Under the pieces are notes generated by a model. The model ran no database searches. It worked only from the letters and a program-made list of their open reading frames with translations, and was not told where the DNA came from. A DNA stretch of 64,000 nt from Vairimorpha necatrix. Taxonomy: Eukaryota. The stretch covers positions 248,001-312,000 of the forward strand of contig CP142731.1 in assembly GCA_036630325.1 (NCBI GenBank), written 5' to 3'. Of the stretch, positions 13,165-64,000 are shown in pieces; position 1 is the first letter of the stretch, and each line of letters begins with the position of its first letter. The position numbers and the translations under genes were made by a program.

Positions 13165-13382
13165 TGAGGTCGTGCACAGGGATGTGTCCCGTCCTGAGGT
13201 AGTTCTCTAGGATGCTGTGGCACTTGGATACATCGATCCCTGTAATATAATCCTTAGTTGGAAAAGATTTATTTATTTTCTCTTGATTGCTCTTGAAAGG
13301 CATGGGGTTAAAAAATTATTTCTTTAAATATTTTTGAGGAACAAAATATTTGAAAGATAATTTTACGTGTGGTAATACCACA
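13165..13382 (-). repeat. 3' LTR of element A
   Basis: Direct repeat of 16981-17198. Confidence 0.96.
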
Positions 13383-13393
13383 TTCTGCCTCTC

Positions 13394-16300
13394 CTATAAT
13401 TTGACGTCCATTATGTGCGTCATGTGGCGGTCTCCTTCTAGTCTAATCCACCTTCCCTTCCGTCCTATCTCCGTGACTCGTTTCTTCCTTTTAAATTTCT
13501 TACCTAATTTTTTGGCGTGATGGTCTTTGGCATATACTAAATCTCCTATGTTGACTTTGCATGGTGGAATGATGTATGGTCGCGATTTTACCGTGGTTTT
13601 GTTGTGTAGGGGATCGAATACAGAGAACTGCTTGATGGCTGCAAGGGGCGATGTTCCTATGGTGCGATTATGGTTCATGTTTATTGTATCCTCGATGTCG
13701 GCGAGGATTGGCCGAATGTTTCTTTTCTTGTTTATTGCTAAGATAAACGCAATGGTTTTGTTTAAAGATTCAGATATTCCATTGGATCTCGGACTGTAGG
13801 TTGGAATTAGTGTATGAGTGATCTTTGCATTGTCTAAGTATGTTTTAAGTTCTCTACCAATGTACTGTTTTCCGTTATCAGATATGATTTGTTTTGGTTT
13901 GCCGTAATCTCTTTCCCACTGGGTTAAGGCCTCTATGACTTTACTTGCTCCAACATTGTAATAGAAGTATAATCTTGTAAATCTAGAATATATGTCTGTG
14001 ATGGACAAGATATATCCTGCCTCCTTTTTCCCCTTATGAATGTAGTCATTTAATTTAAAAGGTCCGAAAATGTCGCTGCTTATTTTTTCAAATTTATGGT
14101 TGGCAGATATATGGGGTCCTTTAGTCTCTATTCCGTTATTTCGTGGTTTATATCTTTTACAAGTTTCACATTTTGATATTATATCCTTTAAGTTTTGAAT
14201 GATGTTTTTTACGTAGACTATATTTTTCAAGTTGTTATACATCGTGGTAATGCCCCGATGACCAAATAACACGTGATTGTTCTTTAAAAACATTTTTGTT
14301 TCGGCATCCTTTAGGATGATTCTACCCTTTGAATCCAGTAAATATTCTCCGTCTCTGTAGTGGCTTGCCTTTTGCAAACTTGCGATGTATTCTTTTATTT
14401 TAGGGGTTTCCTCTTCAGTGATTGCAAAGCATCTTGATAAGTTGTCGGCTATTACGTTTTCTTTGCCATCTACGTGAAAAAGGTCGTAATCAAATTCATT
14501 CATGTTTAGCTTCCATCTTAGTATTCTTGAAGTTTCTTTATTGCATCCCATTACACAGTTTTTACTGTCTGTGTAGACTTCTATGTAAGATCCCTGTGTA
14601 ATTTTTCTAAAGTGAATCATTGATAGCAATATTGAGAGATACTCTTTTTCTACTATTGTATAATTAAGTTCCGGTCCTCCAAATTTTTTGCTATAATAGC
14701 CTATGATTCTATCTTCTTGGTATAATACACTTCCCATTCCCAACTCACTAGCATCGCAGTTGAGTTTAAATTTCTTTTTAAAGTTGGGAAAACATAATTT
14801 ATGATTTTGGCGGATATGAAGTTTCATCCTTTCAATCTCTAATTTCATTTCTTGGGTGAGTGCTTTGTTTTTGTTTTCTTTCTTTAGTAGATCACTAATT
14901 GCATGTAGTTTCATTGACAAATCAGGTAGAAATTTCCTGTACCAGTTCATGACTCCTAATAGTTTTTGTACATCTTTTAGTGTTTTGATTTCCTTGTAGA
15001 AGATTTTGTTTTCTAGATAAGACTGTTTTGGGTAAATTCCATCACCTTTTACGACGTATCCTAATACTTCTACTTCTGATTGAAAGAATTTTGATTTTTC
15101 AAAATTAATTTTAATGTGGTGTTCAAATAGTCGTTGAAGTACTTGTAATAGGGTCGCAGTATGTTCTTCTTTGGTCTTGTTGAAAATAATTATGTCGTCA
15201 ATGTACACAAAGATGTTACTTATTTCTTCTAGCATGTTTGAGATTTTTCTTTGGAAGATCTTCGGCCCCGGTTTTATCCCAAAAGGTATTCTTTTATATT
15301 GGTATTGTTTTCCTAACAAGAAAAATGACGTGTACTTTTTGCTATTTTCTTCTAAAAGAATTTGGTTAAACCCATTTTTTAAATCAATTTGACTAAAATA
15401 TAAATTTTCTCCCATGAGTGTAATTGAGTCTTCAATGTTTGGAATGTTCCATATGTCGTCTCCAATGTATTTGTTTATCTCTCGATAATCTACGACCAGT
15501 CGTAGTTCATTAGTCTTCTTTTTTTCCTTGAAAAAGGCCGGACTCGTGATATGTGATTCGCTTTTCTCTATTATGTTTTCTTTAAGTAGTCTATTTACTT
15601 CGTCTTTGGCCCTTTCCAGAAATTTAAACGGAACGCTGTAATTTTTTGGCTTCATATTTTTCGGTTCCTTTATTATTTTAAACTCTACTTTTAAGTTGTT
15701 AATGTGACTAAAATTGTTGTTGTTCTGTTGGTAAAACTTTAAATATTTAATTATTTCATCTTCTTGAACGACACTACATATATTGTCCATTAACCTATCC
15801 TCTAGTATTTCGTCGATGTTTTTTCTCGCATTTTTTAGAACTACGATGTCGTTATCCAACACGATTGTACGATCCTTATAATTTAAAATAGCATTGTATG
15901 AAGTAAGAAATTCGTTTCCTAACAAAAATTCTATCGGTGCATTGTCTAATATCTTAAAGTTAATATGGTAATTTTTTCTGTTTGGTAGAGTGACGTTGAT
16001 TAAAGCTTGTTTGCTTATGATCCTGTGAGTACCATCTCCAAATATAGTTCTTAGTGGCTTGCAGTCCTCTACTGATAGATCAAGGCTTTTTATTACATCA
16101 CTTCGTACATAGTTGCGGTGTGATCCAGAATCGATTAATAGATTTATGTTGTTTCCTTGGGTAGTACCTTCTAATATCAGTTCTAAGGGTTCATGTTCGT
16201 TCTCTTCACGTAATATCATTGTTTTGTTTTCTTTTTCCTTAATGCCTTTATTGTTGTTAAGGAAATAGCAATCTTTACTATTGTGGGTATTATTCCTATG

Positions 16301-17119
16301 GTGAGTGCACCATTTAGTACTTGAGAGTGGAGCTTTAGTTTGGGGGGTTTTTTGAGGTAGCATCATTTTCTTACTTCTCTCACTATGCACTAAGAGTCCC
16401 GATTCTATTCTTTCTAGGTGAAGAATGATCTCTCGTAGTGTTTTATTGTGTATCCCGGCTTTATATAGTTCCATGTCGGTATATGGCTCTAACCCTCGTA
16501 AGAAGATTTCTTCTGTTCTTCTATCAGTTTCGACTTTGCTCATGTGTCCCAGAAAGCTATACACCTCGAGATCTTTGGTTATCTTATTGAAGTATTCTTT
16601 CACAGTTCTGAAGTTACTCTGCTTGATGTTCTCCAGTTTATTTAGGTATAGTCTTTTGTTTTCAAGGGGATACTTGATAGCAAGTAATTCCTTTTTCAGT
16701 TGCAAGTATGAAGTACTGTCTAGTTCCTCCTTGTAGTATTCATCTAGTATGAGGCTATAAGCAATTAGTCCCATCTGTGAGTCATTCCAGCTATTACATT
16801 TAGATAAGTGTTCAAATCTTTTAAACCATGAAAGCTCTAATTCTTGTCGTACGTCAAAGATTTTCTTAATTCTTTCTTGAATTTTTTCTTCAGTTCCAAG
16901 AACCTGCATGGTGAACTGGGCGTATTCATCACTTCTGTGTTTATCTGAGTTGTTTGCACTTGTTGTCGTTGAATTCAACTTGAGGTCGTGCACAGGGATG
17001 TGTCCCGTCCTGAGGTAGTTCTCTAGGATGCTGTGGCACTTGGATACATCGATCCCTGTAATATAATCCTTAGTTGGAAAAGATTTATTTATTTTCTCTT
17101 GATTGCTCTTGAAAGGCAT
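13394..17119 (-). CDS. Gag-Pol polyprotein (gag, CHHC knuckle, protease, RT, RNase H, integrase), intact
   Basis: WCTHHRNNTHNSKDC; LLIDSGS; YIDD; NCDAS/ADNLSR; H..H..CETC; SDNG; domain order PR-RT-RH-IN. Confidence 0.96.
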   Translation of the reverse strand: MPFKSNQEKINKSFPTKDYITGIDVSKCHSILENYLRTGHIPVHDLKLNSTTTSANNSDKHRSDEYAQFTMQVLGTEEKIQERIKKIFDVRQELELSWFKRFEHLSKCNSWNDSQMGLIAYSLILDEYYKEELDSTSYLQLKKELLAIKYPLENKRLYLNKLENIKQSNFRTVKEYFNKITKDLEVYSFLGHMSKVETDRRTEEIFLRGLEPYTDMELYKAGIHNKTLREIILHLERIESGLLVHSERSKKMMLPQKTPQTKAPLSSTKWCTHHRNNTHNSKDCYFLNNNKGIKEKENKTMILREENEHEPLELILEGTTQGNNINLLIDSGSHRNYVRSDVIKSLDLSVEDCKPLRTIFGDGTHRIISKQALINVTLPNRKNYHINFKILDNAPIEFLLGNEFLTSYNAILNYKDRTIVLDNDIVVLKNARKNIDEILEDRLMDNICSVVQEDEIIKYLKFYQQNNNNFSHINNLKVEFKIIKEPKNMKPKNYSVPFKFLERAKDEVNRLLKENIIEKSESHITSPAFFKEKKKTNELRLVVDYREINKYIGDDIWNIPNIEDSITLMGENLYFSQIDLKNGFNQILLEENSKKYTSFFLLGKQYQYKRIPFGIKPGPKIFQRKISNMLEEISNIFVYIDDIIIFNKTKEEHTATLLQVLQRLFEHHIKINFEKSKFFQSEVEVLGYVVKGDGIYPKQSYLENKIFYKEIKTLKDVQKLLGVMNWYRKFLPDLSMKLHAISDLLKKENKNKALTQEMKLEIERMKLHIRQNHKLCFPNFKKKFKLNCDASELGMGSVLYQEDRIIGYYSKKFGGPELNYTIVEKEYLSILLSMIHFRKITQGSYIEVYTDSKNCVMGCNKETSRILRWKLNMNEFDYDLFHVDGKENVIADNLSRCFAITEEETPKIKEYIASLQKASHYRDGEYLLDSKGRIILKDAETKMFLKNNHVLFGHRGITTMYNNLKNIVYVKNIIQNLKDIISKCETCKRYKPRNNGIETKGPHISANHKFEKISSDIFGPFKLNDYIHKGKKEAGYILSITDIYSRFTRLYFYYNVGASKVIEALTQWERDYGKPKQIISDNGKQYIGRELKTYLDNAKITHTLIPTYSPRSNGISESLNKTIAFILAINKKRNIRPILADIEDTINMNHNRTIGTSPLAAIKQFSVFDPLHNKTTVKSRPYIIPPCKVNIGDLVYAKDHHAKKLGKKFKRKKRVTEIGRKGRWIRLEGDRHMTHIMDVKL

Positions 17120-17198
17120 GGGGTTAAAAAATTATTTCTTTAAATATTTTTGAGGAACAAAATATTTGAAAGATAATTTTACGTGTGGTAATACCACA
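16981..17198 (-). repeat. 5' LTR of element A (contains the CCCC-ATG start of gag)
   Basis: Direct repeat of 13165-13382; the ORF start at 17119 lies inside it. Confidence 0.96.
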
Positions 17199-17274: not shown

Positions 17275-18403
17275 ATGAAAAAATTTATACAAGGTATCAC
17301 TAATTTATCAATCAAATTCCTAGATATCATGTTATCGGGGGATAGTCAAATAACATCAAATCAGGCAATATCTCCATATTCATTTTCTCAAGTCTTTGGT
17401 ATTCTTTCAAATGATCAAAATCATGTCTCAAAGAAAAGATATATGAATAGGCTAGGATTTAAATCTCAAGATAATAAGTTTAATGAAAATTCAAAAGAAT
17501 TCAATGAGAATTTGGTTGAAGACAATAAGAACAGAAAGAATATTTTTTTAGTAAAAAACTTTTTACTTCATCGAAACGATGTCAAAATCAATGAAAATAC
17601 TGAAAAAATAATTAATGAATTCTACAATTCAACAGTAACTTCATATGATCCATATGATACTGAACAAGAATTAAAAAAAATTAATGAAATGGTCGCCGGG
17701 GCTACATATGGAAATATAAAGGAAGCTTTGAAATCTATTATTCCTAGAACTACTTTATCAGTAGTGAATACTCTTTATATGAAATATGAATGGTTTAATC
17801 AATTTGATTATTCTAGTCATGAAAATTTTGTTTCGTTTTCTGGACAAAATAGGCAAGAGATGATGTATAAAATATCAAAATTTGATGTGTATCAAGATGA
17901 TACTAAAATGGCGGTAAAGATGCATTTTAAAGATTCAAATTTCAGTTTTGTGGCTGTAATGCCAACAGAATTAAGAAAATGGAAAAAAAACAATTAAAAA
18001 ATTATGTGATGAAAAAGAATTAGATAAAATATTGACAAAAATGAAATATAAAAATATAGAATTGATTTTTCCTAAGTTTAAAATTGAATCAGAATCCGAT
18101 CTTAGTGATTTTTATAAAGAATTACGAATCGAGAACTTATTAAAAACCACGACATTTGATAGTTTAATAGAAAATTTAAATTTCAAAAAATTAACTATCA
18201 AACAGAAACTTAGTCTTGATATTAATGAAGGGGGAATATCTATTCAAAATTCAATTCCTCCCGCTATCACCAACAGCATTTTAGAGAATGTCGAAGTTTT
18301 TAAATTCAATACCCCTTTTTTATGGTTCGTAATAAAACATGATGCTAAGAATAATACTAACACGCCTATTATTATGGGAAAGTATACTGGACAAGAAAAA
18401 TAA
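17275..18403 (+). pseudogene. Serpin, frameshifted in an A8 run (or a sequencing error); non-inhibitory-looking loop
   Basis: 17275-17997 and 18032-18403 join into one ~375-aa serpin if one A is removed from 17983-17990; ISPYSF, FPKF, DINEGG, FNTPFLWFV. Confidence 0.88.
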
Positions 18404-23208: not shown

Positions 23209-25374
23209 ATGAATTTTTTTAAATTTTTTTTTAAGACCAACTATTTAAATATATACGATGCATTAAATATCTCTTTAAGGCATAAAGCAGAAAATAAAGA
23301 TTATTATATGCTTGACTTTGACGCGCAATACTGGAGAGTATGGATTCATTATAGCAATGAAGATAATATAATAATAGGACAAATAACTGAAGATCCGACT
23401 AGTACTTATAGTACAAAAGTAAAGAAAACTTTTTATATCGATTGTGATAACAAATCAATAAAATTAATTTCGATGGAGCTTGAAGATAATGTAAAAAATT
23501 GTAATCGAATATTTTTAACAGATTATAAATTGTTGGTGTATGAACGAGAAGATATTCTAAATTACTCATTAATGAAAAATCTAATAGAGCATATTAGAAA
23601 TACAAATCAAAAATTTAAAGAAGTACATTATGAATATATTTTAGAATTCGACAATGATACAAGCCCAATTTTTTTAATAACTAAATTTGATATTCCATAT
23701 AATGAATTTGAGATAAATATGATTAATCAACCTTTCTACATAATCCAAAAAAACAATACAAAATATATCAGAATTACGATAAATTTAAGAAACTTTTATT
23801 TTTTGTTTGAAATTAATTGCGAAGATATTTTTTCTGCGCTCAAATCTTTACCAGAACATAATGATGATCTTTCAAAATATATATTAGAATTATATAAGTT
23901 CGTAGATATCGATTCCAACAAAAAGTTTTCAAAGAATGATAATTTTGTTCCATATTTTACCGATTTTATAATTAGCTATGGTGGATTAAAACTCGAAACA
24001 AAACAGGATGAAATTGTTTTTAGTCAAACATTTTGTAGTGAAACTTATTTTTTTGAAGATAATTCAAATGAGTGCACCCACGTTAGCGACAAAATCTGCT
24101 ACGACGAATTTAGAAAGATCTTAGAATTTATCTGTAAAATTAAAGTAAAAAAATTTCAAGGAGCTGAACTATTATACAGACTTTTAAAAAAGCATAATAA
24201 GATAGAACTGATTTTATTAAGAATTCTAAATTCTGTTACTGGTTTAAATATATTTTTTCTGCAACTTGGTAATTTATTAGAAGTATTGGAATTAGATGTT
24301 ACAAGAAACCGTGAAAAATACAATACAGATAAAAACAACTTTGTAAAGAGAATTGCATATTTATTATCTTCTAATCATAGCTTTCCTTTTTATCTAATCA
24401 AAATTTGCTTATTCTTAGAGGTTGAAAAAATGCTAAATGAATCAGAGATTGAAAACGATACAATACTCACAACTTTATATAGAATTAATCTATTGTTATC
24501 ACAAAACAATGAATTTGTAGATTTGATGAATGTTTATGACTTTATAAGTCTTTATATGGAAGAAACAAGAAAATTTAATATTGATTTTGAAGAATATGCA
24601 TTAAAAACAGCATCATTGTTTCAAAAATCTGATAATTTCACTATAATAAAAAAATCAAACAAATTTACTTTTAATAAATATGAATTTTGTGAAGAGTTAG
24701 GATTTGATATACATAAAGTAAAAAAAAATTCAGAAATTTTTCTAAAGAGATTAGTTAAAAACATATCTAATTCGGGGAGCAAAGAGCATGATAAGCTACA
24801 AATATCAGATTACAAAAAAAAATTTGAAAAAAAGGTACTAAAATGCTGTAGAAAATACTGTGATAAATTAATAAGCGAAATTAATATTGAAGATGCAAAT
24901 AACGAAGATGAAATGAAGAAATACAAAAGAAACCTAAAAAGCACTTGTAAGTTTGGAATAAGAAAAATTTTAAAATCTTCTGAAATACAAATATTGCGAG
25001 GTGATATGGAAGAAGCTCTACAAAAACATAAAGTAAGAATGTGGACCAATGTAAAAGAACAAGTTAATAAATTAGAAATGTCAATATATGAATATTTATG
25101 TTATAAATATATAAATAAGATAGATAGAGAGTTTACAGCACATTTAACACTTTATAAGGAGAAAACAAAACAAAAGAATGCGAATGAGTTAAAGCAAAAT
25201 CTCATAAAAAAATTTGAAAACATGATAATCAATGGAGTAGAGGATAATAATCTCGAAGGCAAAATCATGGATACTAAATCAAAAATGTCAGAAGAAGAGT
25301 TATTACAATGCATTTCAGAGGGAAAAACAGCTATTGATCTATTAGATAAATTGATAGACATTATAAAGCAATAA
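23209..25374 (+). CDS. Hypothetical protein, 721 aa, Lys/Glu-rich helical C-terminus
   Basis: Long ORF in AT-rich DNA with a CCC motif before the ATG; no motif recognised. Confidence 0.85.
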   Translation: MNFFKFFFKTNYLNIYDALNISLRHKAENKDYYMLDFDAQYWRVWIHYSNEDNIIIGQITEDPTSTYSTKVKKTFYIDCDNKSIKLISMELEDNVKNCNRIFLTDYKLLVYEREDILNYSLMKNLIEHIRNTNQKFKEVHYEYILEFDNDTSPIFLITKFDIPYNEFEINMINQPFYIIQKNNTKYIRITINLRNFYFLFEINCEDIFSALKSLPEHNDDLSKYILELYKFVDIDSNKKFSKNDNFVPYFTDFIISYGGLKLETKQDEIVFSQTFCSETYFFEDNSNECTHVSDKICYDEFRKILEFICKIKVKKFQGAELLYRLLKKHNKIELILLRILNSVTGLNIFFLQLGNLLEVLELDVTRNREKYNTDKNNFVKRIAYLLSSNHSFPFYLIKICLFLEVEKMLNESEIENDTILTTLYRINLLLSQNNEFVDLMNVYDFISLYMEETRKFNIDFEEYALKTASLFQKSDNFTIIKKSNKFTFNKYEFCEELGFDIHKVKKNSEIFLKRLVKNISNSGSKEHDKLQISDYKKKFEKKVLKCCRKYCDKLISEINIEDANNEDEMKKYKRNLKSTCKFGIRKILKSSEIQILRGDMEEALQKHKVRMWTNVKEQVNKLEMSIYEYLCYKYINKIDREFTAHLTLYKEKTKQKNANELKQNLIKKFENMIINGVEDNNLEGKIMDTKSKMSEEELLQCISEGKTAIDLLDKLIDIIKQ

Positions 25375-33867: not shown

Positions 33868-34095
33868 TGTGGTATTACAACCACATGTAAAATTCCATTT
33901 TCCCAAAATGGAATTTCTTAAATATTTTTTTTAAAAAATATTATTTTTCGACCCCAACAAAAAGAAAGAAGTAGATGCAGAAAAACAACAATAAACATTT
34001 TTTAAATAATAAACAAACAAGGCCCAAGGAGCCGTTTACAAGTAGTTTGCTAGAGGCCTACTTTCAACGAGGGTTCATCCCTCGTGACCACCTCA
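33868..34095 (+). repeat. 5' LTR of element B
   Basis: Direct repeat of 37696-37923; contains the gag start at 33975. Confidence 0.96.
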
Positions 34096-37000
34096 AGTTG
34101 AATTCAACGAGGAAAACTCATATCAAAGATGAAAAGAAAGAAAAAGAACATACAGAATTTGAAAAAAATATACAAGGAACTGCAGTTAAGAGCAAAGTAA
34201 AAATTTATAACATTTATGATATTCAACAAGATTTAACCATAAATCAACTCCAAAAATTTGAGATGTTAGCTAAAGCAAATGATTGGAATGACGAACAAAT
34301 GGCTTTGATTTACATGGATTGTATACACGATCCAAGAAAAGATTATTTACCATCAGATTCTTATATTGCATTAAGAAAGTCACTGTTGAATTTTATTTAT
34401 CCACCGGAACAAAAAAGACATGCGATACGTGAATTAGATAATACAAGCCAAATAAGTTATTTTAGTATCAAAGAATATAAAGAAACAATCGAGGAAAGAC
34501 TTAACAGTTATTCATATTATAATGATCTAAAAAAAAGAGAAGCTCTGCATAAAATGGAAGAAGTATTTTTAAAGGGACTAGGAGATTTCACACATTTAGA
34601 ATTAACAAGACAAAATATAAGTAAGGAAATTTATGAAATTTATAATTACCTTGTTCTAATAGAAAATGAAATTTTAACTAAAGTCGAGAAACCCAATACC
34701 CATTATGAAAAAGAAAATTTTGATTATAACAGAAATACTCAATTTAATAACCCGAAATGGTGCTCACTTCATAAGAGTAACTATACTCATGATACCAGGC
34801 GTTGTTACGCCTTACATAATAAAAAAAGATTGCCTGAATTTGCAGATCACAAGGATAAAAATATGATTATTAAACAACGTAGCCAATGTCCAGAAGACAT
34901 TACTGTAATAGGAAAAATAGGTAATAAGGATGTGAAAATGCTATTAGATAGCGGATCAAGGAGAAATTATATTACTAAAAGCGCAGTTAATGAATTTAAT
35001 TTAAAGAAAGAAGAATGTGCTAGAATTAAAACCATTTTTGGAAATAATGAAACAGCAGAATCCAATGAAATGGTCAATACTGTTGTTACGATAAAAGAAA
35101 AACCTTTTGAAGTAAAATTTTGCGTTTTAGAAAAATTACCCGTTAATTTTGTTCTAGGGAACGAATTTCTTGACATGCATTGTGCAAAGTTAGATTACGC
35201 CGAAGGAACGGTAGAATTAGATGGACTACGAATTGACATGGTACATAAAGAGGGAAATGCTGAGGAATTGCTAGATAAAGAAATAGTTAATAAATTATGT
35301 CAGGTTAGCGAAAGCGAAGAATTTAATAAACTATTAGACTTCTATATTAAAGAAAACAAAAAATTTACCTCTATGAAAACAAACCTAGCTTCGTTTAATG
35401 TAATACAACCAGTTTTAAAAACAAAGAAGATTACCTATACAGTTCCATTTAAATATATTGAAAAGGCGAAAATGGAAATTAAAAGACTTTTAGATGCAGA
35501 TATAATTGAAAAGAGTTCTTCTGATATAATAAGCCCTGCATTTTTTATAGAAAAGAAAAATAAATATTTACGTTTAGTAGTAGATTATAGGGAAGTAAAT
35601 AAAGCTTTACAAGATGACCCATGGATATTGCCCAAAATTGAGGATTGTCTAACAATAATGGGATCTAACAAATTTTTTACGCAGATTGATTTAAGTAACG
35701 GATTTAATCAGATAAAAATAGATGAACAAAGCAAGAAATATACATCGTTTTTTTTATTAGGACAACAGTGGCAATACAAGAGAATTCCCTTTGGAATTAA
35801 GCCCGGTCCAAAATTATTTCAAAGAAATATTTCAAACATTTTAGGAGATTTCGATAATGTATTTGTTTTCATAGATGATATTGTGATTTATAATAAAACA
35901 AAAGAAAGTCATTTAATTTCCGTAGAAAAAATACTAGAAACTTTATATAGCAAAAATGTCCAAATAAATTTCGAAAAATCGAAGTTTTTTTAACCAGAAA
36001 TTGAAGTTTTGGGTTACAAAATAAATCACGAAGGAATTTTTCCAAAAACTAATTATTTAAATAATAGAATATTCGAGAAAGAAATAAGAACGAAAAAGGA
36101 TTTACAAAAACTGTTAGGAGTGATAAACTGGTACAGAAAGTTTATTCCAGATCTTTCGATAAGGATTAATAAATTTACAGATATGTTAAAAAACAAGAAT
36201 GAAAATAAAATTAAAATAACGACCGAAATGAGAAAGGAAGTTGACAGAATTAAAGAGTGGATTTTAGGTAATCATATGTTATCATTTCCCGATTACAATA
36301 GTAAATTTACATTACACGTTGACGCGAGCGAAATAGGTTTAGGAAGTACACTAACACAAAAGGATAAAATCATTAGATATTATAGTAAAAAATTTTCCGG
36401 TCCAGAATTAAATTACAGTATTGTTGAGAAGGAATTTTTGGCAATTGTTTTATCTATGCTCAATTTTAAAAACATAATCCAAGGATCTTATGTAGAGATT
36501 TATACTGATAGTAAAAATTGTATCTATGAAAATAAAATCGAAACATCAAGAATTAATAGATGGAAATTGTTGTTAAATGAATTTAGTTTTTCACTAAATC
36601 ATATAGATGGTAATAAAAATTGTATGGCAGATAATCTATCAAGAAATTTCATTGGAATCGGAAATAATGAAAACAATAATCACGAAGAAATTATTAAACT
36701 AAACCAAGAATGTTGTCTCAGAGACAAAAACGGTAACTTTATATTTGATAAAGAAAAGCGCTACATAGTTAAATTTAACCAAGTAAAAAAATTTATATCA
36801 TTTATGCATGAATTTGGACTTCATAGAGGAATTTCTACCCTATATTACAATATAAAGCGCTATTACTATATAAAACGAATCTTTAAAGAAATAAGAAATA
36901 CCATTAGCAAATGTAAAATTTGTGGAATTTATAAAAATAAGCATCCTAAAAAATATATCACTGGCAATATAGTAGCACAAAGAAAATTTGAAAAGGTAAG

Positions 37001-50623: not shown

Positions 50624-51286
50624 TTAAGGTATTTGATCACAGGCCTCCCTAAATAACAATTCATAAGCATTAGATTCCAAAAAATAAGTAGTCTGGACAC
50701 CTCTATCCCCGCCATCGTCTTCTTTTAATGATACTGGGTTTTTGATGGGACATCCTGCTGCGGCCATAAGTGCATTAGCAAAAGTGAGTTCGAATTTTGA
50801 TCTTTCTGGTTCCACAAAAGTAGCAATACGACGAACACATGAAAGATTATCACCTTGTATTAAAAGTGGTACTTCCATATTCGCGTTACTAAAATGTTCA
50901 TAATATGTTGAAGACGGACAATTAAGAAATGTTATTATATTATTTTTAGTATTCATATTGTGTATTGCTTGTAAATGAGTAGCTATTATATCAATATTTT
51001 GTCCACATTCGTCAATGTCTATCCCTTTGGGCGGTTCAGTCAATACATTAATTGAGAATTCGATTGGCGAATATTTATTTGTAGCATCACTTAAAGCTCT
51101 TTGGTTTAGATTGTTTTCGAGCTTTTCTTTCACTTTGTTCATTGCTGTTTCTATATCCTCCATTCTTACTGAATATGAATCCTTCCCTCTTTCGCTGATA
51201 TAAATGTCTACAGGGACTTTCATTACATTTGTATTCTGAGCTTTTATTAATCTACTTAATAAAATAATACTTAGAACAGTTATCAT
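50624..51286 (-). CDS. Secreted Cys-containing protein, possibly spore-wall type
   Basis: Signal-like MITVLSIILLSRLIKA, 220 aa, 5 Cys; the family assignment is inference only. Confidence 0.8.
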   Translation of the reverse strand: MITVLSIILLSRLIKAQNTNVMKVPVDIYISERGKDSYSVRMEDIETAMNKVKEKLENNLNQRALSDATNKYSPIEFSINVLTEPPKGIDIDECGQNIDIIATHLQAIHNMNTKNNIITFLNCPSSTYYEHFSNANMEVPLLIQGDNLSCVRRIATFVEPERSKFELTFANALMAAAGCPIKNPVSLKEDDGGDRGVQTTYFLESNAYELLFREACDQIP

Positions 51287-51405: not shown

Positions 51406-52086
51406 TTATTTTTCTAATATTTCTTTATTAGCCAATCTTCCTTTTTCGTATTCACTTTTAAATTTCTCAGTATTTTCACTGGTATCAAATTTCACCAAAT
51501 AAAATTTTTTTTTGTTTGTTTCATCGTCCACAGTATCTTCAGTTGTGCACCAAACCCACCCATTATTTATATTTTCATTTTTTATTAATTTATGCCTTGG
51601 GTTTATATAATGATTACATCCGAATCTCATAATACTTTCTCTTATCATTACAACTTTGATCATCTCTGTTTCTTTTTCTTTATTTATCATTATGTCTCCA
51701 GGTCCTCTTTCTTCAAATTTCTTTTTTTCTTTATTAAAAATGTAGAGAAGACATTTCGATTTAAATAAAACTTCGTCTTTTAGATTAGATTCAATAAATT
51801 TCTCTTGTAATCCTTTTAGTTCCAAATCTTCTGAAGCAACAACTGGCTCATCATTTTTTTTTGTAATTGTAGAAGTTAAGAAAGAAGATTGTTTTCTAAT
51901 TGGTCCATTAGTTTGTTTTTCTTCCTCAACTTTTTCTTTATTTTCTTCCTTAACTTTCTCTTCTTCTTTAGTTTCTTCCTTGATTTGTTCTTCGTTTTTC
52001 ATTAATTGTTCGCTTTTCTCATTTTTCAAATGTTGTTCGCTTTCTTCATTTTTCATTTGTTTTTCGTTTTCCGTTGTGGTGCTCAT
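51406..52086 (-). CDS. YRB1: Ran-binding domain protein (RanBP1/Yrb1-like)
   Basis: DEVLFKSKCLLY...FEERGPGDI...VVMIRE...CNHYI...WVW; charged repetitive N-terminus; CCCC motif upstream. Confidence 0.85.
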   Translation of the reverse strand: MSTTTENEKQMKNEESEQHLKNEKSEQLMKNEEQIKEETKEEEKVKEENKEKVEEEKQTNGPIRKQSSFLTSTITKKNDEPVVASEDLELKGLQEKFIESNLKDEVLFKSKCLLYIFNKEKKKFEERGPGDIMINKEKETEMIKVVMIRESIMRFGCNHYINPRHKLIKNENINNGWVWCTTEDTVDDETNKKKFYLVKFDTSENTEKFKSEYEKGRLANKEILEK

Positions 52087-59009: not shown

Positions 59010-60696
59010 AAGTTTATTTAAATGTTATTTTCATATTGATACAAAAGCCTAAATGTGTATGACGCATAATGACACAACGCGGGACTCATTTTTTAAAATA
59101 AATATACGTTATAATGAGGAGAAACAAACAAATTTAGATTGTAATATTTATTAAATCGTATTTTTTTTTGTGTCACATCAAATTACAGACTGAGTAATAT
59201 CTTTAGAGCTGTTATTTTATTTTTATTTGTTTTTCCAAAATGTTATCTATTTCGTTTTAATTTTTTCTGTAGTTGTTCCTACATGGTTCTTTTTAATATT
59301 TTGACTATATGTCTATAATGATCAAAACAATGTGCTATAGCAGTTTTTTTTTCTAATATGTTCTTTTCTCTAATATCAGACGACATACAAAAAAAGTATA
59401 GTAAGCATTTTAAAAGAATATAGATAAGATAAAACATTAACATGTGCTTTTTATAATAACATTAGTGTTTTTGTTTGTTTTATGTAAATGGGAGCTATTT
59501 GGTCGGTTTTCGATTCGAACTAAGAAGAATACGATTGTGAAACTTAAAAATTTTTAAATAGAAAAAATTTATGACGAGAAATATCTAAGAAGGTAAAAGC
59601 GTACATCAAGACGATCACGCCGAAGAAGACGCTAGAAAGCATTTTTCTGGATTATCGAAGAAAAGAGATTAAGCCGATGTGAAAATGAGTATGGAGCCTA
59701 GAAGTTACCTACAAGCAAGAGACGCTAACGCGGAACCTATTCTCGTGAAATCAAAATATAAACTACATTAAGCATACCCCAATATAAATCATTCATTTAT
59801 GGCGAAATATTCTACGATATAAAAAATCTGTATGCTATCTAAATTTTAGAAACCACAATTAAAGTATGATTTGTCCGGGTAATTAAAGGTGTGCTTCTAA
59901 ATGATTTTTTATATTTGAAATCTTCGAAACAAATTTCAACATAAATATTAAAAAAAAGAAAATTAAAAAGAATAAATTCTAGTACGACCATTTATTAAAA
60001 TTTATATTATGCTTCTTTTTTTAACATTGTTTTAGAAATAATATAACCAAAAAAATAATATATAGTATTTATTTTTATAATTGCTTTCATTGTATGGAAC
60101 TTTTTGTATTCAAATGAAAGGCAATTTTTTCTTGTAATTCTATTAAATAGATTACAAAAAATAATAGCAAACATATTTGTACAACGCGTAATGTAGATTC
60201 GATTCTTTAATTCTTAAAATAATATGCGAAATATGAAGATTAGCAGTCAATGCATAGTGTATCCAAACCCCCATTAAATACATATATAGTTAGAATATTT
60301 TATCATTAAAAATACTTATACTAGAGTAATTTACTGTAAATTGAGATAAAATTGTTTTTTTGGTACTGCTTGTATTTATGAAATTATATCAATTATAAAT
60401 TCTTATCCAAAGGTAATCTTTCAATTTTCTTAGATTATAGAAATACCACCAAAAAAACATTTAACTAGATATATAAAGAATGTATTAAAAAATTTAATGA
60501 TGCGTTATATTTTACTTAGATTAACTAAAGGGATTATAGCTTTTTCGTAAAAAATCAGCATTTTTATTAAGTAGTTATGTGATATTAATTATTTATACTT
60601 TAATTTTTTTCTTAATATATTGATTTTAAGTATAAATTCCTATGATCACGCTTTATTTTCTTCTATTAAAAATCGGAAGATGAATATGTCATAAAA

Positions 60697-60734
60697 TGTT
60701 AACCATTTATTTATTAAGGGTTCTAAACCCTACA
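60697..60734 (-). repeat. 3' LTR of element C (38 bp; contains the ORF stop)
   Basis: Identical to 63734-63771; bounded by the PPT and the TSD. Confidence 0.93.
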
Positions 60735-63700
60735 TCCCCCCTCCAGACGGGTAGTCTCTCCATCTTCTAAACAACTCTTCCTTATCTCTTTCAAATCATA
60801 ATGCCTCTTTTTAACAATTTTACCATCCAGTAGTCTCACAATATATGAATCATTTTCACTTATAGCTACGATCCTTCCGCGACCCGTGAATCTTCCCTTG
60901 TCTGTTTTCGCACGTGTACCTAAATTTTCTCTCCTAGCGATTCTTACCTCTTGGCCTACTGTAAATGTCTCTCTGTGTCTTCTCTTGAACCGACCAGCAT
61001 ATTTTCCATTTTCATCATTTTCAATTATAACTTCAGCAGTTTGATCTCTCCACGCTTCCATCGGCGTACATTTTATTGCTGTATGTAGTGTATTATTATA
61101 TCCTTTGATTGCTCTTTCTATCTTTTCAGAAATATTCCCATCATTTTGCTTTATCAATGTCTCTCTTATAGTTCTGATGCATCTCTCGATTCTACCATTA
61201 CTCCTATGAGCTTCTAAGCCCACTTTCCTATGTTTAATATCATTAATACTACACCATTCTTTAAATCTATTACTTACAAACTCTTTTCCGTTGTCTGTCA
61301 CATATTCCTCTGGAAATCCATCTTCCCTTATCCACTTTTGTAATACCTCTATAACTTCACTACTCTCTTTACATCTCAAATTCGAACCCCACAACCTTCT
61401 AGTAAAGTAATCAATACCCAGTAACACATACCTATTCTCTCCACCTATGTCCATTAAATCCAACGCCACTTTCTCCAATTTCTTTCTAGTTACTACGAAA
61501 TCACATCCTCCTGTGTTTTTCCTATTGTTAATCCCACATATTTCACAATTCTTAATTACATTATTAATATGATCTTTCATACCAGGCCAATACCATCTTT
61601 GTTTAATGTTATAATAAGTGCCTTTGACACCTCTATGGTTTAACTCCTCATGTACTCTTGTTATTTCATGTTCTCTACTATCTAGGCTCAATATCTCTTT
61701 CACCTCACCTGTGGAAAATTCCCAATACTGTTTACCGTCCTTTTCTTTAATATGTTTCTGCTTTTTTCCCAAAATTTGTTTTTCGATCACTTCTTTTCTC
61801 TTGTTGTCCTTTTCTTTTTGTTCATCCGAAACTTCTACCTGATCATACTGCCTACTTAACGCATCTGCATCTGTCATCAACTCCCCTTTCACATACTCTA
61901 TTGTAAAGTCAAACTCTTGTATCTGTTCTACCCATCTGTTTATTCTGTTATTATTGAAGTATGGCTTATTTCTGATCTCTGCTAATGCTTTATGATCCGT
62001 CATCAAATGAAATTTCCTTCCTCTCAAATCACTTTCAAACTTCTTTATTCCAAAAAACACCGCCAACATCTCCTTCTCACTTATCGTATATCTTCGCTCG
62101 GTAGGAGTCAACATTTTCGATGCCCATTGTATCGGAATCCACTCACCCTCTTTATTTTCTTGTAATAGAATTGCTCCGATCCCCGTATCACACGCATCAG
62201 TTCTTACTCTAAATAGCTTTTTTCCGTCCGGAATCTTCAACTTTTTCATATCTCTCAAGCCTTGCTTCATATCCTCAAAAGCTCTTTCCATATCCTCCGT
62301 CCAATTCCACTTAACATCTTTCTTTAAAGCCTCAGTAAGCCTTACTGTTCTATACGCATAGTTGGGAATAAAGTCTCTAAACCAACCAGTTAGTCCTAAA
62401 AATCTTCTTAACTCTCTAACATTCTCAGGTTTTCTATATTCCAATGTCTCCTGCTTTTTAATCTCATTCGGTCCCATGACCTCCCCATTAATTGTTACTC
62501 CCAGCAACATCACCTCATCTTTTTTGTATTGTATCTTTGTTTGGTTTATTCTCAACCCACACTCTTTAAACTTTTTAATTACCCTCTCTAGTAACTCGTC
62601 ATGCACTCTTACGTCTTTACCATGAATAACTATATCATCCATATATACTTCCACGCCTTTACCTCTGAATTCATCTAAAACTCTGTTCATTACTCTCTGC
62701 ATTATATGAGGCGAATTCTTAAACCCCATAACCATACTATTCCATTCGTATACTCGACCATTCACTTCAAATGCTGTTTTGTGCTTATGGTGCTCCTCAA
62801 TCTCAATATGATAAAACCCTTCTTTTAAGTCGATAACCGTAAATACTTTTGACCCCTGTGTGGCTCTCATAATATCCTTAATTAACGGTAGTGAGTACGG
62901 GTCCTTGTCAACCAAATCGTTTAACGCCATCAAATTGCTTACCAATCTTACGTCCCCATTTGGGTTTTCAAGTGCTCTTATTGGACTCCTCCACTCACTT
63001 TTGGAACGTCTTATAACCCCTCTATTTTCCAACTTATTCAAGTACTCCTCAAATTTCACCCTAAGGTAGTATGGCACATTCTGCCCTCTTTTCACAACCT
63101 TTTCACCTTGCTTAGTATTTATTGGACACTTCTCTCCTGTGAGATATTTTATCTTTTCTTCTGATTCTTTAAAAACTTCCGGATACTTTTCAATTAAATT
63201 TTCTAACTTATTTACTGTTTTACATCTTTTCCCTTCATTGTTGATAATTGGTTCTTTCTGTAAAACTTGTTCCTTTTTAATTTTATATTTTTCCCTACCA
63301 GCTACACTTTCATGACATTCTCTAGCGTAATGCCCTTCTTTCTTACATATAAAACATTTTGTAGTTTCTCTGATTTCTCTTCTTTTCCTATACATCCTAA
63401 GATTTTCTTTTCTTTCTTCCCTAAACTCTTTCAACACTTTATCCATAATCTCTTTAATCATTTCTTGTCTTTCTTCTGACTCTCTCTCAAATTCTGCTCC
63501 TTTTTGTAAGCCTTTATAAATTTCCTCCCAACTGCTCCTTCCGTCACAAAAATTTTCAAAAATATAATCCTGCAAGTTCGCAGATGCCAAATCCATAACA
63601 TCTTTCCACTCAACTTTCTCAACTTTCAATATTAACTTTAGTCTCTTATCTATCCTAATTGCCTCTTTCTCTAATGTTCTAGCCTCTTGACTACGGGACT

Positions 63701-63743
63701 CTCTTGTTTCCCTGTTCATCCTTGTGTTCGCCATGTTAACCAT
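60723..63743 (-). CDS. Short Gag-CCHC-RT-RNase H-integrase polyprotein with no recognisable protease
   Basis: CFICKKEGHYAREC; YMDD; TDAC/TDH/DADALSR; HEELNH..CEIC; TDNG; ERCIR. Confidence 0.95.
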   Translation of the reverse strand: MVNMANTRMNRETRESRSQEARTLEKEAIRIDKRLKLILKVEKVEWKDVMDLASANLQDYIFENFCDGRSSWEEIYKGLQKGAEFERESEERQEMIKEIMDKVLKEFREERKENLRMYRKRREIRETTKCFICKKEGHYARECHESVAGREKYKIKKEQVLQKEPIINNEGKRCKTVNKLENLIEKYPEVFKESEEKIKYLTGEKCPINTKQGEKVVKRGQNVPYYLRVKFEEYLNKLENRGVIRRSKSEWRSPIRALENPNGDVRLVSNLMALNDLVDKDPYSLPLIKDIMRATQGSKVFTVIDLKEGFYHIEIEEHHKHKTAFEVNGRVYEWNSMVMGFKNSPHIMQRVMNRVLDEFRGKGVEVYMDDIVIHGKDVRVHDELLERVIKKFKECGLRINQTKIQYKKDEVMLLGVTINGEVMGPNEIKKQETLEYRKPENVRELRRFLGLTGWFRDFIPNYAYRTVRLTEALKKDVKWNWTEDMERAFEDMKQGLRDMKKLKIPDGKKLFRVRTDACDTGIGAILLQENKEGEWIPIQWASKMLTPTERRYTISEKEMLAVFFGIKKFESDLRGRKFHLMTDHKALAEIRNKPYFNNNRINRWVEQIQEFDFTIEYVKGELMTDADALSRQYDQVEVSDEQKEKDNKRKEVIEKQILGKKQKHIKEKDGKQYWEFSTGEVKEILSLDSREHEITRVHEELNHRGVKGTYYNIKQRWYWPGMKDHINNVIKNCEICGINNRKNTGGCDFVVTRKKLEKVALDLMDIGGENRYVLLGIDYFTRRLWGSNLRCKESSEVIEVLQKWIREDGFPEEYVTDNGKEFVSNRFKEWCSINDIKHRKVGLEAHRSNGRIERCIRTIRETLIKQNDGNISEKIERAIKGYNNTLHTAIKCTPMEAWRDQTAEVIIENDENGKYAGRFKRRHRETFTVGQEVRIARRENLGTRAKTDKGRFTGRGRIVAISENDSYIVRLLDGKIVKKRHYDLKEIRKSCLEDGETTRLEGGCRV
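63721..63733 (-). promoter_or_regulatory. tRNA primer-binding site of element C
   Basis: TGGCGAACACAAG directly follows the LTR-terminal CA; TGG is complementary to the tRNA CCA end; cognate tRNA not identified. Confidence 0.75.
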
Positions 63744-63771
63744 TTATTTATTAAGGGTTCTAAACCCTACA
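63734..63771 (-). repeat. 5' LTR of element C (38 bp)
   Basis: Identical to 60697-60734; bounded by the TSD and the PBS. Confidence 0.93.
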
Positions 63772-63848
63772 TAAAATAAAAAATTCATAATTTTTTTTCT
63801 ATATATTACTATTAATACATATTCTAAAATTTATTTAACTAAAAAAGT

Positions 63849-63967
63849 AATTACGGCCATATCTACTGTAAAGCACCGGAACTCGTCAGCTCTCCGAAGT
63901 TAAGCCAGTAAGAGCCCCGTGAGTACTGAGATGGGAGACCGCTCGGAAAAGCAGGGTGCTGTAATTT
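63849..63967 (+). rRNA. 5S rRNA: 5S ribosomal RNA
   Basis: TACGGCCATA..., GAAGTTAAGC (box A), AGTACT..ATGGGAGACC (box C); terminal helix AATTACGGC/GCTGTAATT; T4 terminator; ~119 nt. Confidence 0.95.
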
Positions 63968-64000
63968 TATTAAAAAATGAAATCTTAAAAACAATTGTTA

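Follow-up and report, generated by a model that had tools for sequence, protein, structure and literature searches.

How little sequence can the termini of a long terminal repeat (LTR) retrotransposon hold? The question is raised by a locus of the microsporidian Vairimorpha necatrix (GenBank assembly GCA_036630325.1, contig CP142731.1), in which positions 60697–63771 (minus strand) of a 64-kb stretch of DNA, contig positions 248,001 to 312,000 and hereafter called the window, read from the sequence as a 3,075-bp LTR retrotransposon with terminal repeats of 38 bp. LTRs are U3-R-U5 units that usually measure from about 100 bp to several kb. On the evidence set out below, we judge with a probability of roughly 0.7 that an ultra-compact LTR retrotransposon, from a protease-less branch of the microsporidian Ty3/gypsy-type elements, has recently inserted a copy of itself here.

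The limits of the element were examined at the level of single bases. When up to three mismatches were allowed, a 38-mer (TGTTAACC...CCCTACA on the plus strand) was found twice in the window, at 63734–63771 (the 5′ LTR) and at 60697–60734 (the 3′ LTR), and two matches were obtained in none of 100 shuffles. In the orientation of the element, both copies read TGTAGGGTTTAGAACCCTTAATAAATAAATGGTTAACA and are identical. The exact repeat spans 40 nt rather than 38 (60696–60735 and 63733–63772), because one flanking base on each side agrees by chance; the 38-bp reading with TG..CA ends is preferred because it results in a perfect 5-bp target-site duplication (TSD), TAAAA at 60692–60696 and again at 63772–63776, and puts TGG directly after the 5′ LTR. 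Here TGGCGAACACAAGG, a TGG-type primer-binding site (PBS) that is putative in both identity and extent, adjoins the LTR at 63720–63733 (minus strand). At the other end, a polypurine tract (PPT), GGAGGGGGGA, lies directly before the TGT of the 3′ LTR at 60735–60744 (minus strand), within a conserved 24-nt block, GAGACTACCCGTCTGGAGGGGGGA, at 60735–60758. Terminal direct repeats with TG..CA ends, a TSD of 4–6 bp and a PPT next to the 3′ LTR, all of which define Ty3/gypsy elements, are thus present. An LTR of about 100 bp to several kb, which is likewise expected, is not: the repeats measure 38 bp here and 38, 39, 66 and 67 bp in relatives.

Almost the entire element is coding. A single open reading frame (ORF) of 1006 amino acids (60723–63743, minus strand) takes up 98.2% of the 3,075 bp, and no other ORF of at least 60 amino acids was found in any frame between 60000 and 64000. 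This ORF starts at nt 29 of the 5′ LTR (ATG GTT AAC A|TG GCG, the bar marking the end of the repeat), so that the first in-frame ATG occupies LTR nt 29–31 and a second is formed by the last A of the 5′ LTR together with the TG of the putative PBS. It ends with its last three codons and a TAG stop (nt 10–12) inside the 3′ LTR. On the sense strand, the LTR also contains ACCCTT at nt 14–19 and AATAAA at nt 20–25 and 24–29. An earlier, sequence-only reading of this locus had described the identical TG...CA repeats, the 5-bp TSD, the TGG PBS, the G-rich PPT, the overlapping AATAAA motifs and an ORF running from one LTR into the other over about 98% of the element; all of these are in the sequence, and the ends are backed by the contigs of two public runs that are described next.

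Logan contigs of four public runs (X1 to X4, of which X3 is a bat gut metagenome and X4 a freshwater metagenome) were compared with positions 60000–64000. This revealed one X2 contig (depth 6.7; shorter side 84 letters) that joins 60689 to 63770 and omits 3,080 bases, with a joint that is ambiguous by eight letters (CATAAAAT) and can equally be placed from 60696 to 63777. The omitted bases amount to the 3,075-bp element plus one 5-bp TAAAA. The joint is an unoccupied site, given that a solo LTR would omit 3,037 bases; the contig differs from the window flanks by four letters and one deletion, and may come from an allele, another strain or a paralogue. In addition, X1 and X2 contigs leave the element at 63771 and 63772 and enter two different, unrelated flanks. 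They represent further insertions that share this terminus. The two X1 contigs that cover the element (60706–62370 and 62341–63751) have a word depth of 60–65, carry a single other letter each in 1,665 and 1,411 nt, and both break within the LTRs, at 60706 and 63751; for an X1 flank contig the depth is 3.6, and 17 other letters and 5 gaps occur within 343 nt. Pieces at least 99% identical to the window made up 11 of 13 in X3 and all six in X4.

Taken together, these contigs fit a young multi-copy family, and they exclude longer LTRs that incorporate the flanks seen here; copies of that kind, which would have spoken against the sequence-only reading, were not seen. The mobile unit is exactly 3,075 bp long with LTRs of 38 bp, and it was inserted by a DDE integrase that makes a 5-bp duplication. 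The proposal of a recently active, extremely miniaturised lineage is supported by the empty site, the alternative flanks, the near-identical deep contigs and the relatives with LTRs of 38–67 bp that are described below.

A further observation concerns X1 and X2, in which the flank at 60000–60553 is about 5% different from the window and the element at 60706–63751 about 99.9% identical to it. This contrast suggests that the element has spread very recently, compared with the time since these strains or species diverged, or else that it has been transferred between them.

What the element encodes was analysed by domain search, alignment and structure prediction. Behind a gag-like helical N-terminus, Pfam identified a CCHC zinc knuckle (zf-CCHC, match at residues 129–144; knuckle residues 130–143, 63315–63356), a reverse transcriptase (RT; RVT_1, E 9.8e-31, residues 261–418, 62490–62963), an RNase H (RT_RNaseH and RT_RNaseH_2, residues 481–611, 61911–62303) and an integrase with an H2C2 zinc domain (Integrase_H2C2, residues 690–741) and a DDE core (rve, residues 766–839; together 61227–61676), all on the minus strand. 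The order RT, RNase H, integrase is that of Ty3/gypsy elements, and the kinship extends to more distant homologues that are named Ty3-G Gag-Pol, transposon 17.6 and Tf2-9. When the window protein was aligned with 14 of its best homologues (15 sequences, 45–68% identity), the residues found to be invariant were C130, C133, H138 and C143 of the knuckle, Y367, D369 and D370 of the RT, D516, E556 and D583 of the RNase H, and H698, H703, C733, C736, D762, D817 and E853 of the integrase. An AlphaFold model built from this alignment (mean predicted local distance difference test score, pLDDT, 73.4) has helices at residues 15–127, the knuckle, a disordered linker at 148–177 and then the RT, and its best fold matches are the RTs of cauliflower mosaic virus, Ty3 and Moloney murine leukaemia virus, with the Ty3 enzyme in second place (4ol8, 26% identity). 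The N-terminal 127 residues are helical in this model with a pLDDT of about 75–80; folded as a single sequence, the N-terminal 199 residues reached a mean pLDDT of 48. In the same 199 residues neither a capsid family nor a solved capsid was matched by sequence, the only matches being to nucleocapsid knuckles, with retroviral nucleocapsid chains aligning to residues 122–144.

An aspartic protease between Gag and RT, another defining feature of Ty3/gypsy elements, was not found. Pfam gave no protease match in the 1006-residue ORF at E ≤0.01, nor in its N-terminal 199 residues at E values of up to 10; the same library detects a protease in both of the roughly 4-kb gypsy-type families of the window (13165–17198, minus strand, and 33868–37924, plus strand, the second with its ORF split into two of 672 and 500 residues). 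The region between the knuckle and the N-terminus of the RT is variable and gappy in the alignment, and the alignment-based model has no beta-rich domain at the retropepsin position. Among the 51 best homologues none has a protease family on record, the 35 sequences with both a knuckle and an RT landmark space the two by 101–180 residues, and a D[ST]G motif was found upstream of the RT in 2 of the 40 sequences with an RT landmark and within the first 300 residues in 3 of the 12 without one. A protease hidden in another frame was ruled out, there being no second ORF of at least 60 residues in 60000–64000. The absence of the protease is common to the whole clade. The earlier description of an intact Gypsy element consequently stands for the open ORF and for the catalytic residues of RT, RNase H and integrase, but not for the protease, which is missing from element and clade alike.

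The two 4-kb families resemble the element in several respects. They share its genome, have 5-bp TSDs (TATAG and ATATT) and identical LTR pairs, and start their ORFs inside the 5′ LTR behind a CCC motif (CCCC in their case). They differ in possessing LTRs of 218 and 229 bp and a protease, in having AGTTGAATTCAACGA rather than TGG after the LTR, and in protein sequence, at only 27–28% identity to the 3,075-bp element.

To what extent the short LTRs are peculiar to one copy can be answered from its relatives. A search of 5.8 billion proteins returned 174 matches, for the best 120 of which details were available. The 51 best (E ≤1e-111, 34–73% identity) are mostly about 1,000 residues long; the named homologues among the matches listed come from Nosema granulosis (3), Vairimorpha necatrix (3) and Enteropsectra breve (1), and two others from metagenome-assembled genomes (MAGs) labelled Clostridium. 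A scan of viral contigs found no relative. Of 103 related loci, the nine closest were examined, the remainder being mostly 22–30% identical or short fragments of other lineages. At the single end seen of L081 (67% identity), the PPT block recurs and is followed by 38 bp, TGTTGGGTTATTAGCCCCTATTAAATAAATGACTAACA, that can be aligned with the window LTR as a homologous 3′ LTR, and then by unrelated flank. L001 (51%, degraded ORF) has LTRs of 39 bp that agree at 38 of 39 positions, the TSD TTATA on both sides and the PBS TGGCACCCAGTC. In L082 (38%, open ORF of about 1,100 residues) and L002 (36%), the two LTRs are identical and measure 67 and 66 bp, respectively, with TGTT..ACA ends and the PBS TGGCACCC. 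L003 and L087 contribute one end each with the same junction motifs, and L083, L004 and L006 are internal fragments without ends.

The junctions themselves are conserved in these relatives. TGGC directly follows the LTR in L001, L082, L002 and L087 as it does in the window, and in six aligned 3′ ends GGGG followed by TGT is invariant, with an A between them in five. Upstream of the PPT lies a conserved block of 14 nt, GAGACTACCCGTCT (window 60745–60758, minus strand; L081 2700–2713; the 3′ ends of L001 and L003). Because its DNA is conserved whether the frame there encodes other residues or nothing (with stops in L001), this block is probably cis-acting, and it probably belongs to an extended signal for plus-strand priming.

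In a quick maximum-likelihood tree of 39 rows (24 of the first 54 matches, 12 of matches 52–106, L082 and two window elements), a 26-row clade (SH-aLRT 99) took in the 3,075-bp element together with L082. Outside it lay the window element with 218-bp LTRs and all 12 outgroup rows, so that protease-bearing rows were excluded from it. Circumstantially, 17 Logan contigs that encode relatives of 996–1090 residues are only 3,035–3,432 nt long. LTRs of 38–67 bp are a trait of this clade and no one-off. As a side observation, the contigs of L081, L083, L082 and L087 are filed in bacterial MAGs (Clostridium, Erysipelotrichales, Turicibacter); these are presumably AT-rich eukaryotic contigs that were mis-binned.

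How might 38 bp serve as an LTR? In Nosema, TTTTTTTACCCC or ACCCTT stands immediately ahead of transcripts and no more than 20 bp from the start codon (PMC11592040), and 5′ UTRs (untranslated regions) in E. cuniculi are shorter than 7 nt (PMC2803860). The ACCCTT of the LTR lies 11 nt ahead of the first LTR ATG, and in the LTRs of L001, L082 and L002 the same motif occurs 3–8 nt before an ATG, with TATAAATA about 20 nt upstream of it in L082 and L002. Within the window, a CCC is found at most 15 nt upstream of the ATG in 11 of 25 ORFs of at least 100 residues, as in TTTACCCTT before the ATG at 23209 and GACCCCTTAATTT before that at 52086. The resemblance of the LTR motif to the sequences that precede host start codons, which had been pointed out earlier, therefore holds; as to the use of the short host promoters and UTRs, the motif and its spacing are consistent with it, the use itself being inferred.

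We suggest that, given how minute the promoters and UTRs of microsporidia are, the 38 bp could carry the entire U3-R-U5 function. U3 would extend from LTR nt 1 to about nt 19 and comprise the last ORF codons, the stop and ACCCTT as a core-promoter motif; transcription would start between about nt 18 and nt 28, and the start codon would be either the ATG at nt 29 or the one formed across the junction (nt 38–40). AATAAA (nt 20–29) would direct 3′-end formation at or just past the end of the 3′ LTR. With the start placed at nt 18–28 and the 3′ end close to the end of the LTR, R plus any U5 would come to at most about 21 nt and should still permit minus-strand transfer. Such a length is feasible in view of retroviral precedent for strand transfer with less than 20 nt of terminal redundancy, the R of mouse mammary tumour virus (MMTV) being about 15 nt long. 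A tRNA would prime the minus strand at TGGCGAACAC..., and the block formed by GAGACTACCCGTCT and GGAGGGGGGA would prime the plus strand. The resulting Gag-RT-RNase H-integrase polyprotein may function unprocessed, or it may be cut by a protease from elsewhere, either that of the 4-kb families or a host enzyme.

Two other features of the LTR were considered and set aside. The hairpin AGGGTT-TAG-AACCCT described earlier is present, but its stability (−5.9 kcal/mol, z −0.24) is at chance level, with 78 of 200 shuffles folding at least as well, and it is not conserved, being weak in L081 and absent from L001 and L082; we reject it as a functional element. Self-priming of the Tf1 type was rejected as well, since complementarity between the LTR and the PBS region reaches at most 4–5 nt in the four elements compared.

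Other explanations of the locus were weighed against these data. Repeats are a classic source of misassembly, and LTRs of normal length might have been collapsed or trimmed to 38 bp; yet the ORF reads through both junctions, contigs from independent runs recover the same interior and end or branch off at these very termini, the joint at the empty site omits exactly 3,080 bases, and relatives in unrelated assemblies share the architecture, which leaves an assembly artefact extremely improbable. Hardly more credit can be given to the idea of a single dead copy whose LTRs were shortened by deletion. It could draw on two amino-acid changes at conserved lysines that are private to the window copy (see below), and would have to accommodate identical LTRs, an open ORF, many near-identical contigs in four runs, and LTRs of 38–39 bp in relatives at 51% and 67% identity. 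An LTR that lacks a promoter is unlikely but deserves more attention. Transcription would then come from neighbouring host promoters or from read-through, with ACCCTT and AATAAA as by-products of AT-rich coding and target sequence, and it is true that the LTR offers just 13 nt upstream of ACCCTT, that the window has 17 copies of this motif, counting both strands, most of them away from ORF starts, and that transcriptional overrun has been reported in E. cuniculi (PMC2803860). An RNA started upstream would, however, give a strong-stop cDNA that ends in the flank and is unmatched at the 3′ end of the element. Moreover, L001, L082 and L002, whose LTR sequences otherwise differ, likewise have an ACCCTT followed by ATG there, and in L082 and L002 TATAAATA stands about 20 nt upstream of it.

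The strongest competitor, which we regard as possible and still clearly short of even odds, is an element that is mobile without being autonomous, that borrows the protease and perhaps the capsid of the 4-kb families, and whose LTRs are integrase ends plus a minimal R. Element and clade lack a protease, protease-bearing families with identical LTR pairs lie in the same 64 kb, and the gag-like part is short (helices at residues 15–127 and one knuckle) with no capsid family matched. Against such dependence, the clade is old (identity down to 36–45%) and has kept the active sites of RT, RNase H and integrase together with a gag-like N-terminus of its own, and it would be a fragile arrangement to rely lastingly, for cleavage sites, on a family that is unrelated (27% identity).

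Several points weigh against the reading of the locus as a recently transposed copy of an ultra-compact, protease-less element with fully functional 38-bp LTRs. Without a protease, its autonomy is uncertain. The window copy itself may be impaired, or may not be the most active one, as it differs from the majority sequence of the runs covering each position by two private changes, both third-base changes in conserved lysine codons: N728 (61560) where all four runs have K, and N260 (62964) where X1, X2 and X4 have K, K260 being nearly invariant in the family alignment. The read evidence consists of Logan contigs, the depth of which is no copy number, and the contig comparison marks the stretch between the two sides of the X2 empty-site joint as 'not known'. 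What is said of further copies rests on the 64-kb window and the run contigs. No TSD was found in L082 and L002, two of the three relatives with both ends; these are short-read metagenome assemblies and may be chimeras in which the flank of one copy is joined to that of another. Sublineages differ as to whether AATAAA or ACCCTT comes first, and one U3/R/U5 layout may not fit them all. There was no RNA run among the 15 public runs listed with the element, so that transcription start, poly(A) site and R are inferred, and no tRNA gene that could supply the primer was found in the window or in the seven loci scanned.

Set beside known systems, the element shares with Ty3 and other canonical Metaviridae TG..CA LTRs, a 5-bp TSD, a putative TGG PBS, a PPT, a CCHC knuckle and the order RT, RNase H, integrase. 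It differs from them in its 38-bp LTRs, the absent protease, the lack of a recognisable capsid domain, and an ORF with both its start and its stop within the LTRs. Ty3 has LTRs of 340 bp in an element of about 5.4 kb, compared with 38 bp and 3.1 kb here, and even the short LTRs of Mag measure 77 bp. TRIM and SMART elements have extreme shortening in common with it; their LTRs are roughly 100–250 bp, and they are noncoding and non-autonomous, whereas 98.2% of the present element is an open, conserved ORF with RT, RNase H and integrase. Retroviruses with a short R still have LTRs of hundreds to more than 1,000 bp, because their U3 is long.

Microsporidian Ty3/gypsy elements with a single gag-pol polyprotein have been published and divided into three groups (Parisot et al. 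2014, PMC4202319), a description that is restated in PMC13174016. These groups are like the present element in host, in the order RT, RNase H, integrase, and in having one polyprotein ORF, which is the 1006-residue ORF here; the parts of the main text consulted (PMC4202319) give no LTR lengths and do not contain the word 'protease', and the supplementary tables may list LTR sizes. A full-text search of the literature, with those tables and the 2006 paper of Xu et al. outside it, yielded no statement of such short LTRs or of an absent protease, and among phrase matches for short LTRs none was microsporidian, judged by title. The paper of Xu et al. reportedly deals with the Nbr elements of Nosema bombycis. 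In public databases, the family's coding part already exists under generic names, and we regard the element as a variant within the Ty3/gypsy-type elements.

A clade that succeeds with LTRs of 38–67 bp greatly lowers the minimum of cis sequence that transcription, 3′-end formation, two strand transfers and integration are seen to require, and offers a small natural system for mapping and mutating R. That the protease has been lost throughout the clade also raises the question of whether Gag-Pol processing is obligatory for LTR elements. Since LTRharvest and LTR_FINDER have a default minimum LTR of 100 bp, microsporidian repeat annotations and estimates of insertion age probably miss or misfile elements of this kind. 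More tentatively, and with somewhat less than an even chance in our estimation, this may be the smallest self-sufficient LTR design yet: 3.07 kb and protease-free, with promoter, poly(A) and strand-transfer functions in 38 bp, an R of at most about 21 nt and a U5 near zero. If this is true, LTR retrotransposition can do without proteolytic maturation as well as without a long U3, and a widespread microsporidian clade is invisible to finders that demand LTRs of at least 100 bp.

The surroundings of the element offer some further observations. Next to relatives, no tRNA or other RNA polymerase III gene was found in seven loci, which makes a single case of the 5S rRNA gene that lies outside the window element (63849–63967, plus strand; Rfam RF00001, 92.7 bits), 77 nt from its 5′ end and pointing away from it. 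The 4-kb element at 13165–17198 ends 76 nt short of a divergent serpin ORF (17275); the two gene-adjacent insertions may be due to chance, or to integration into regions upstream of genes. The window also contains genes for a MICSWaP spore wall protein (50624–51286, minus strand), for lipin and RanBP1, and for three serpins, one of them truncated (6265–7401, 17275–17997 and 46923–48116), the spore wall protein and the serpins supporting the microsporidian host that had been surmised from the sequence. With a non-LTR reverse transcriptase ORF at 10188–12242 (minus strand), the stretch as a whole is rich in transposons and carries an expansion of serpins.

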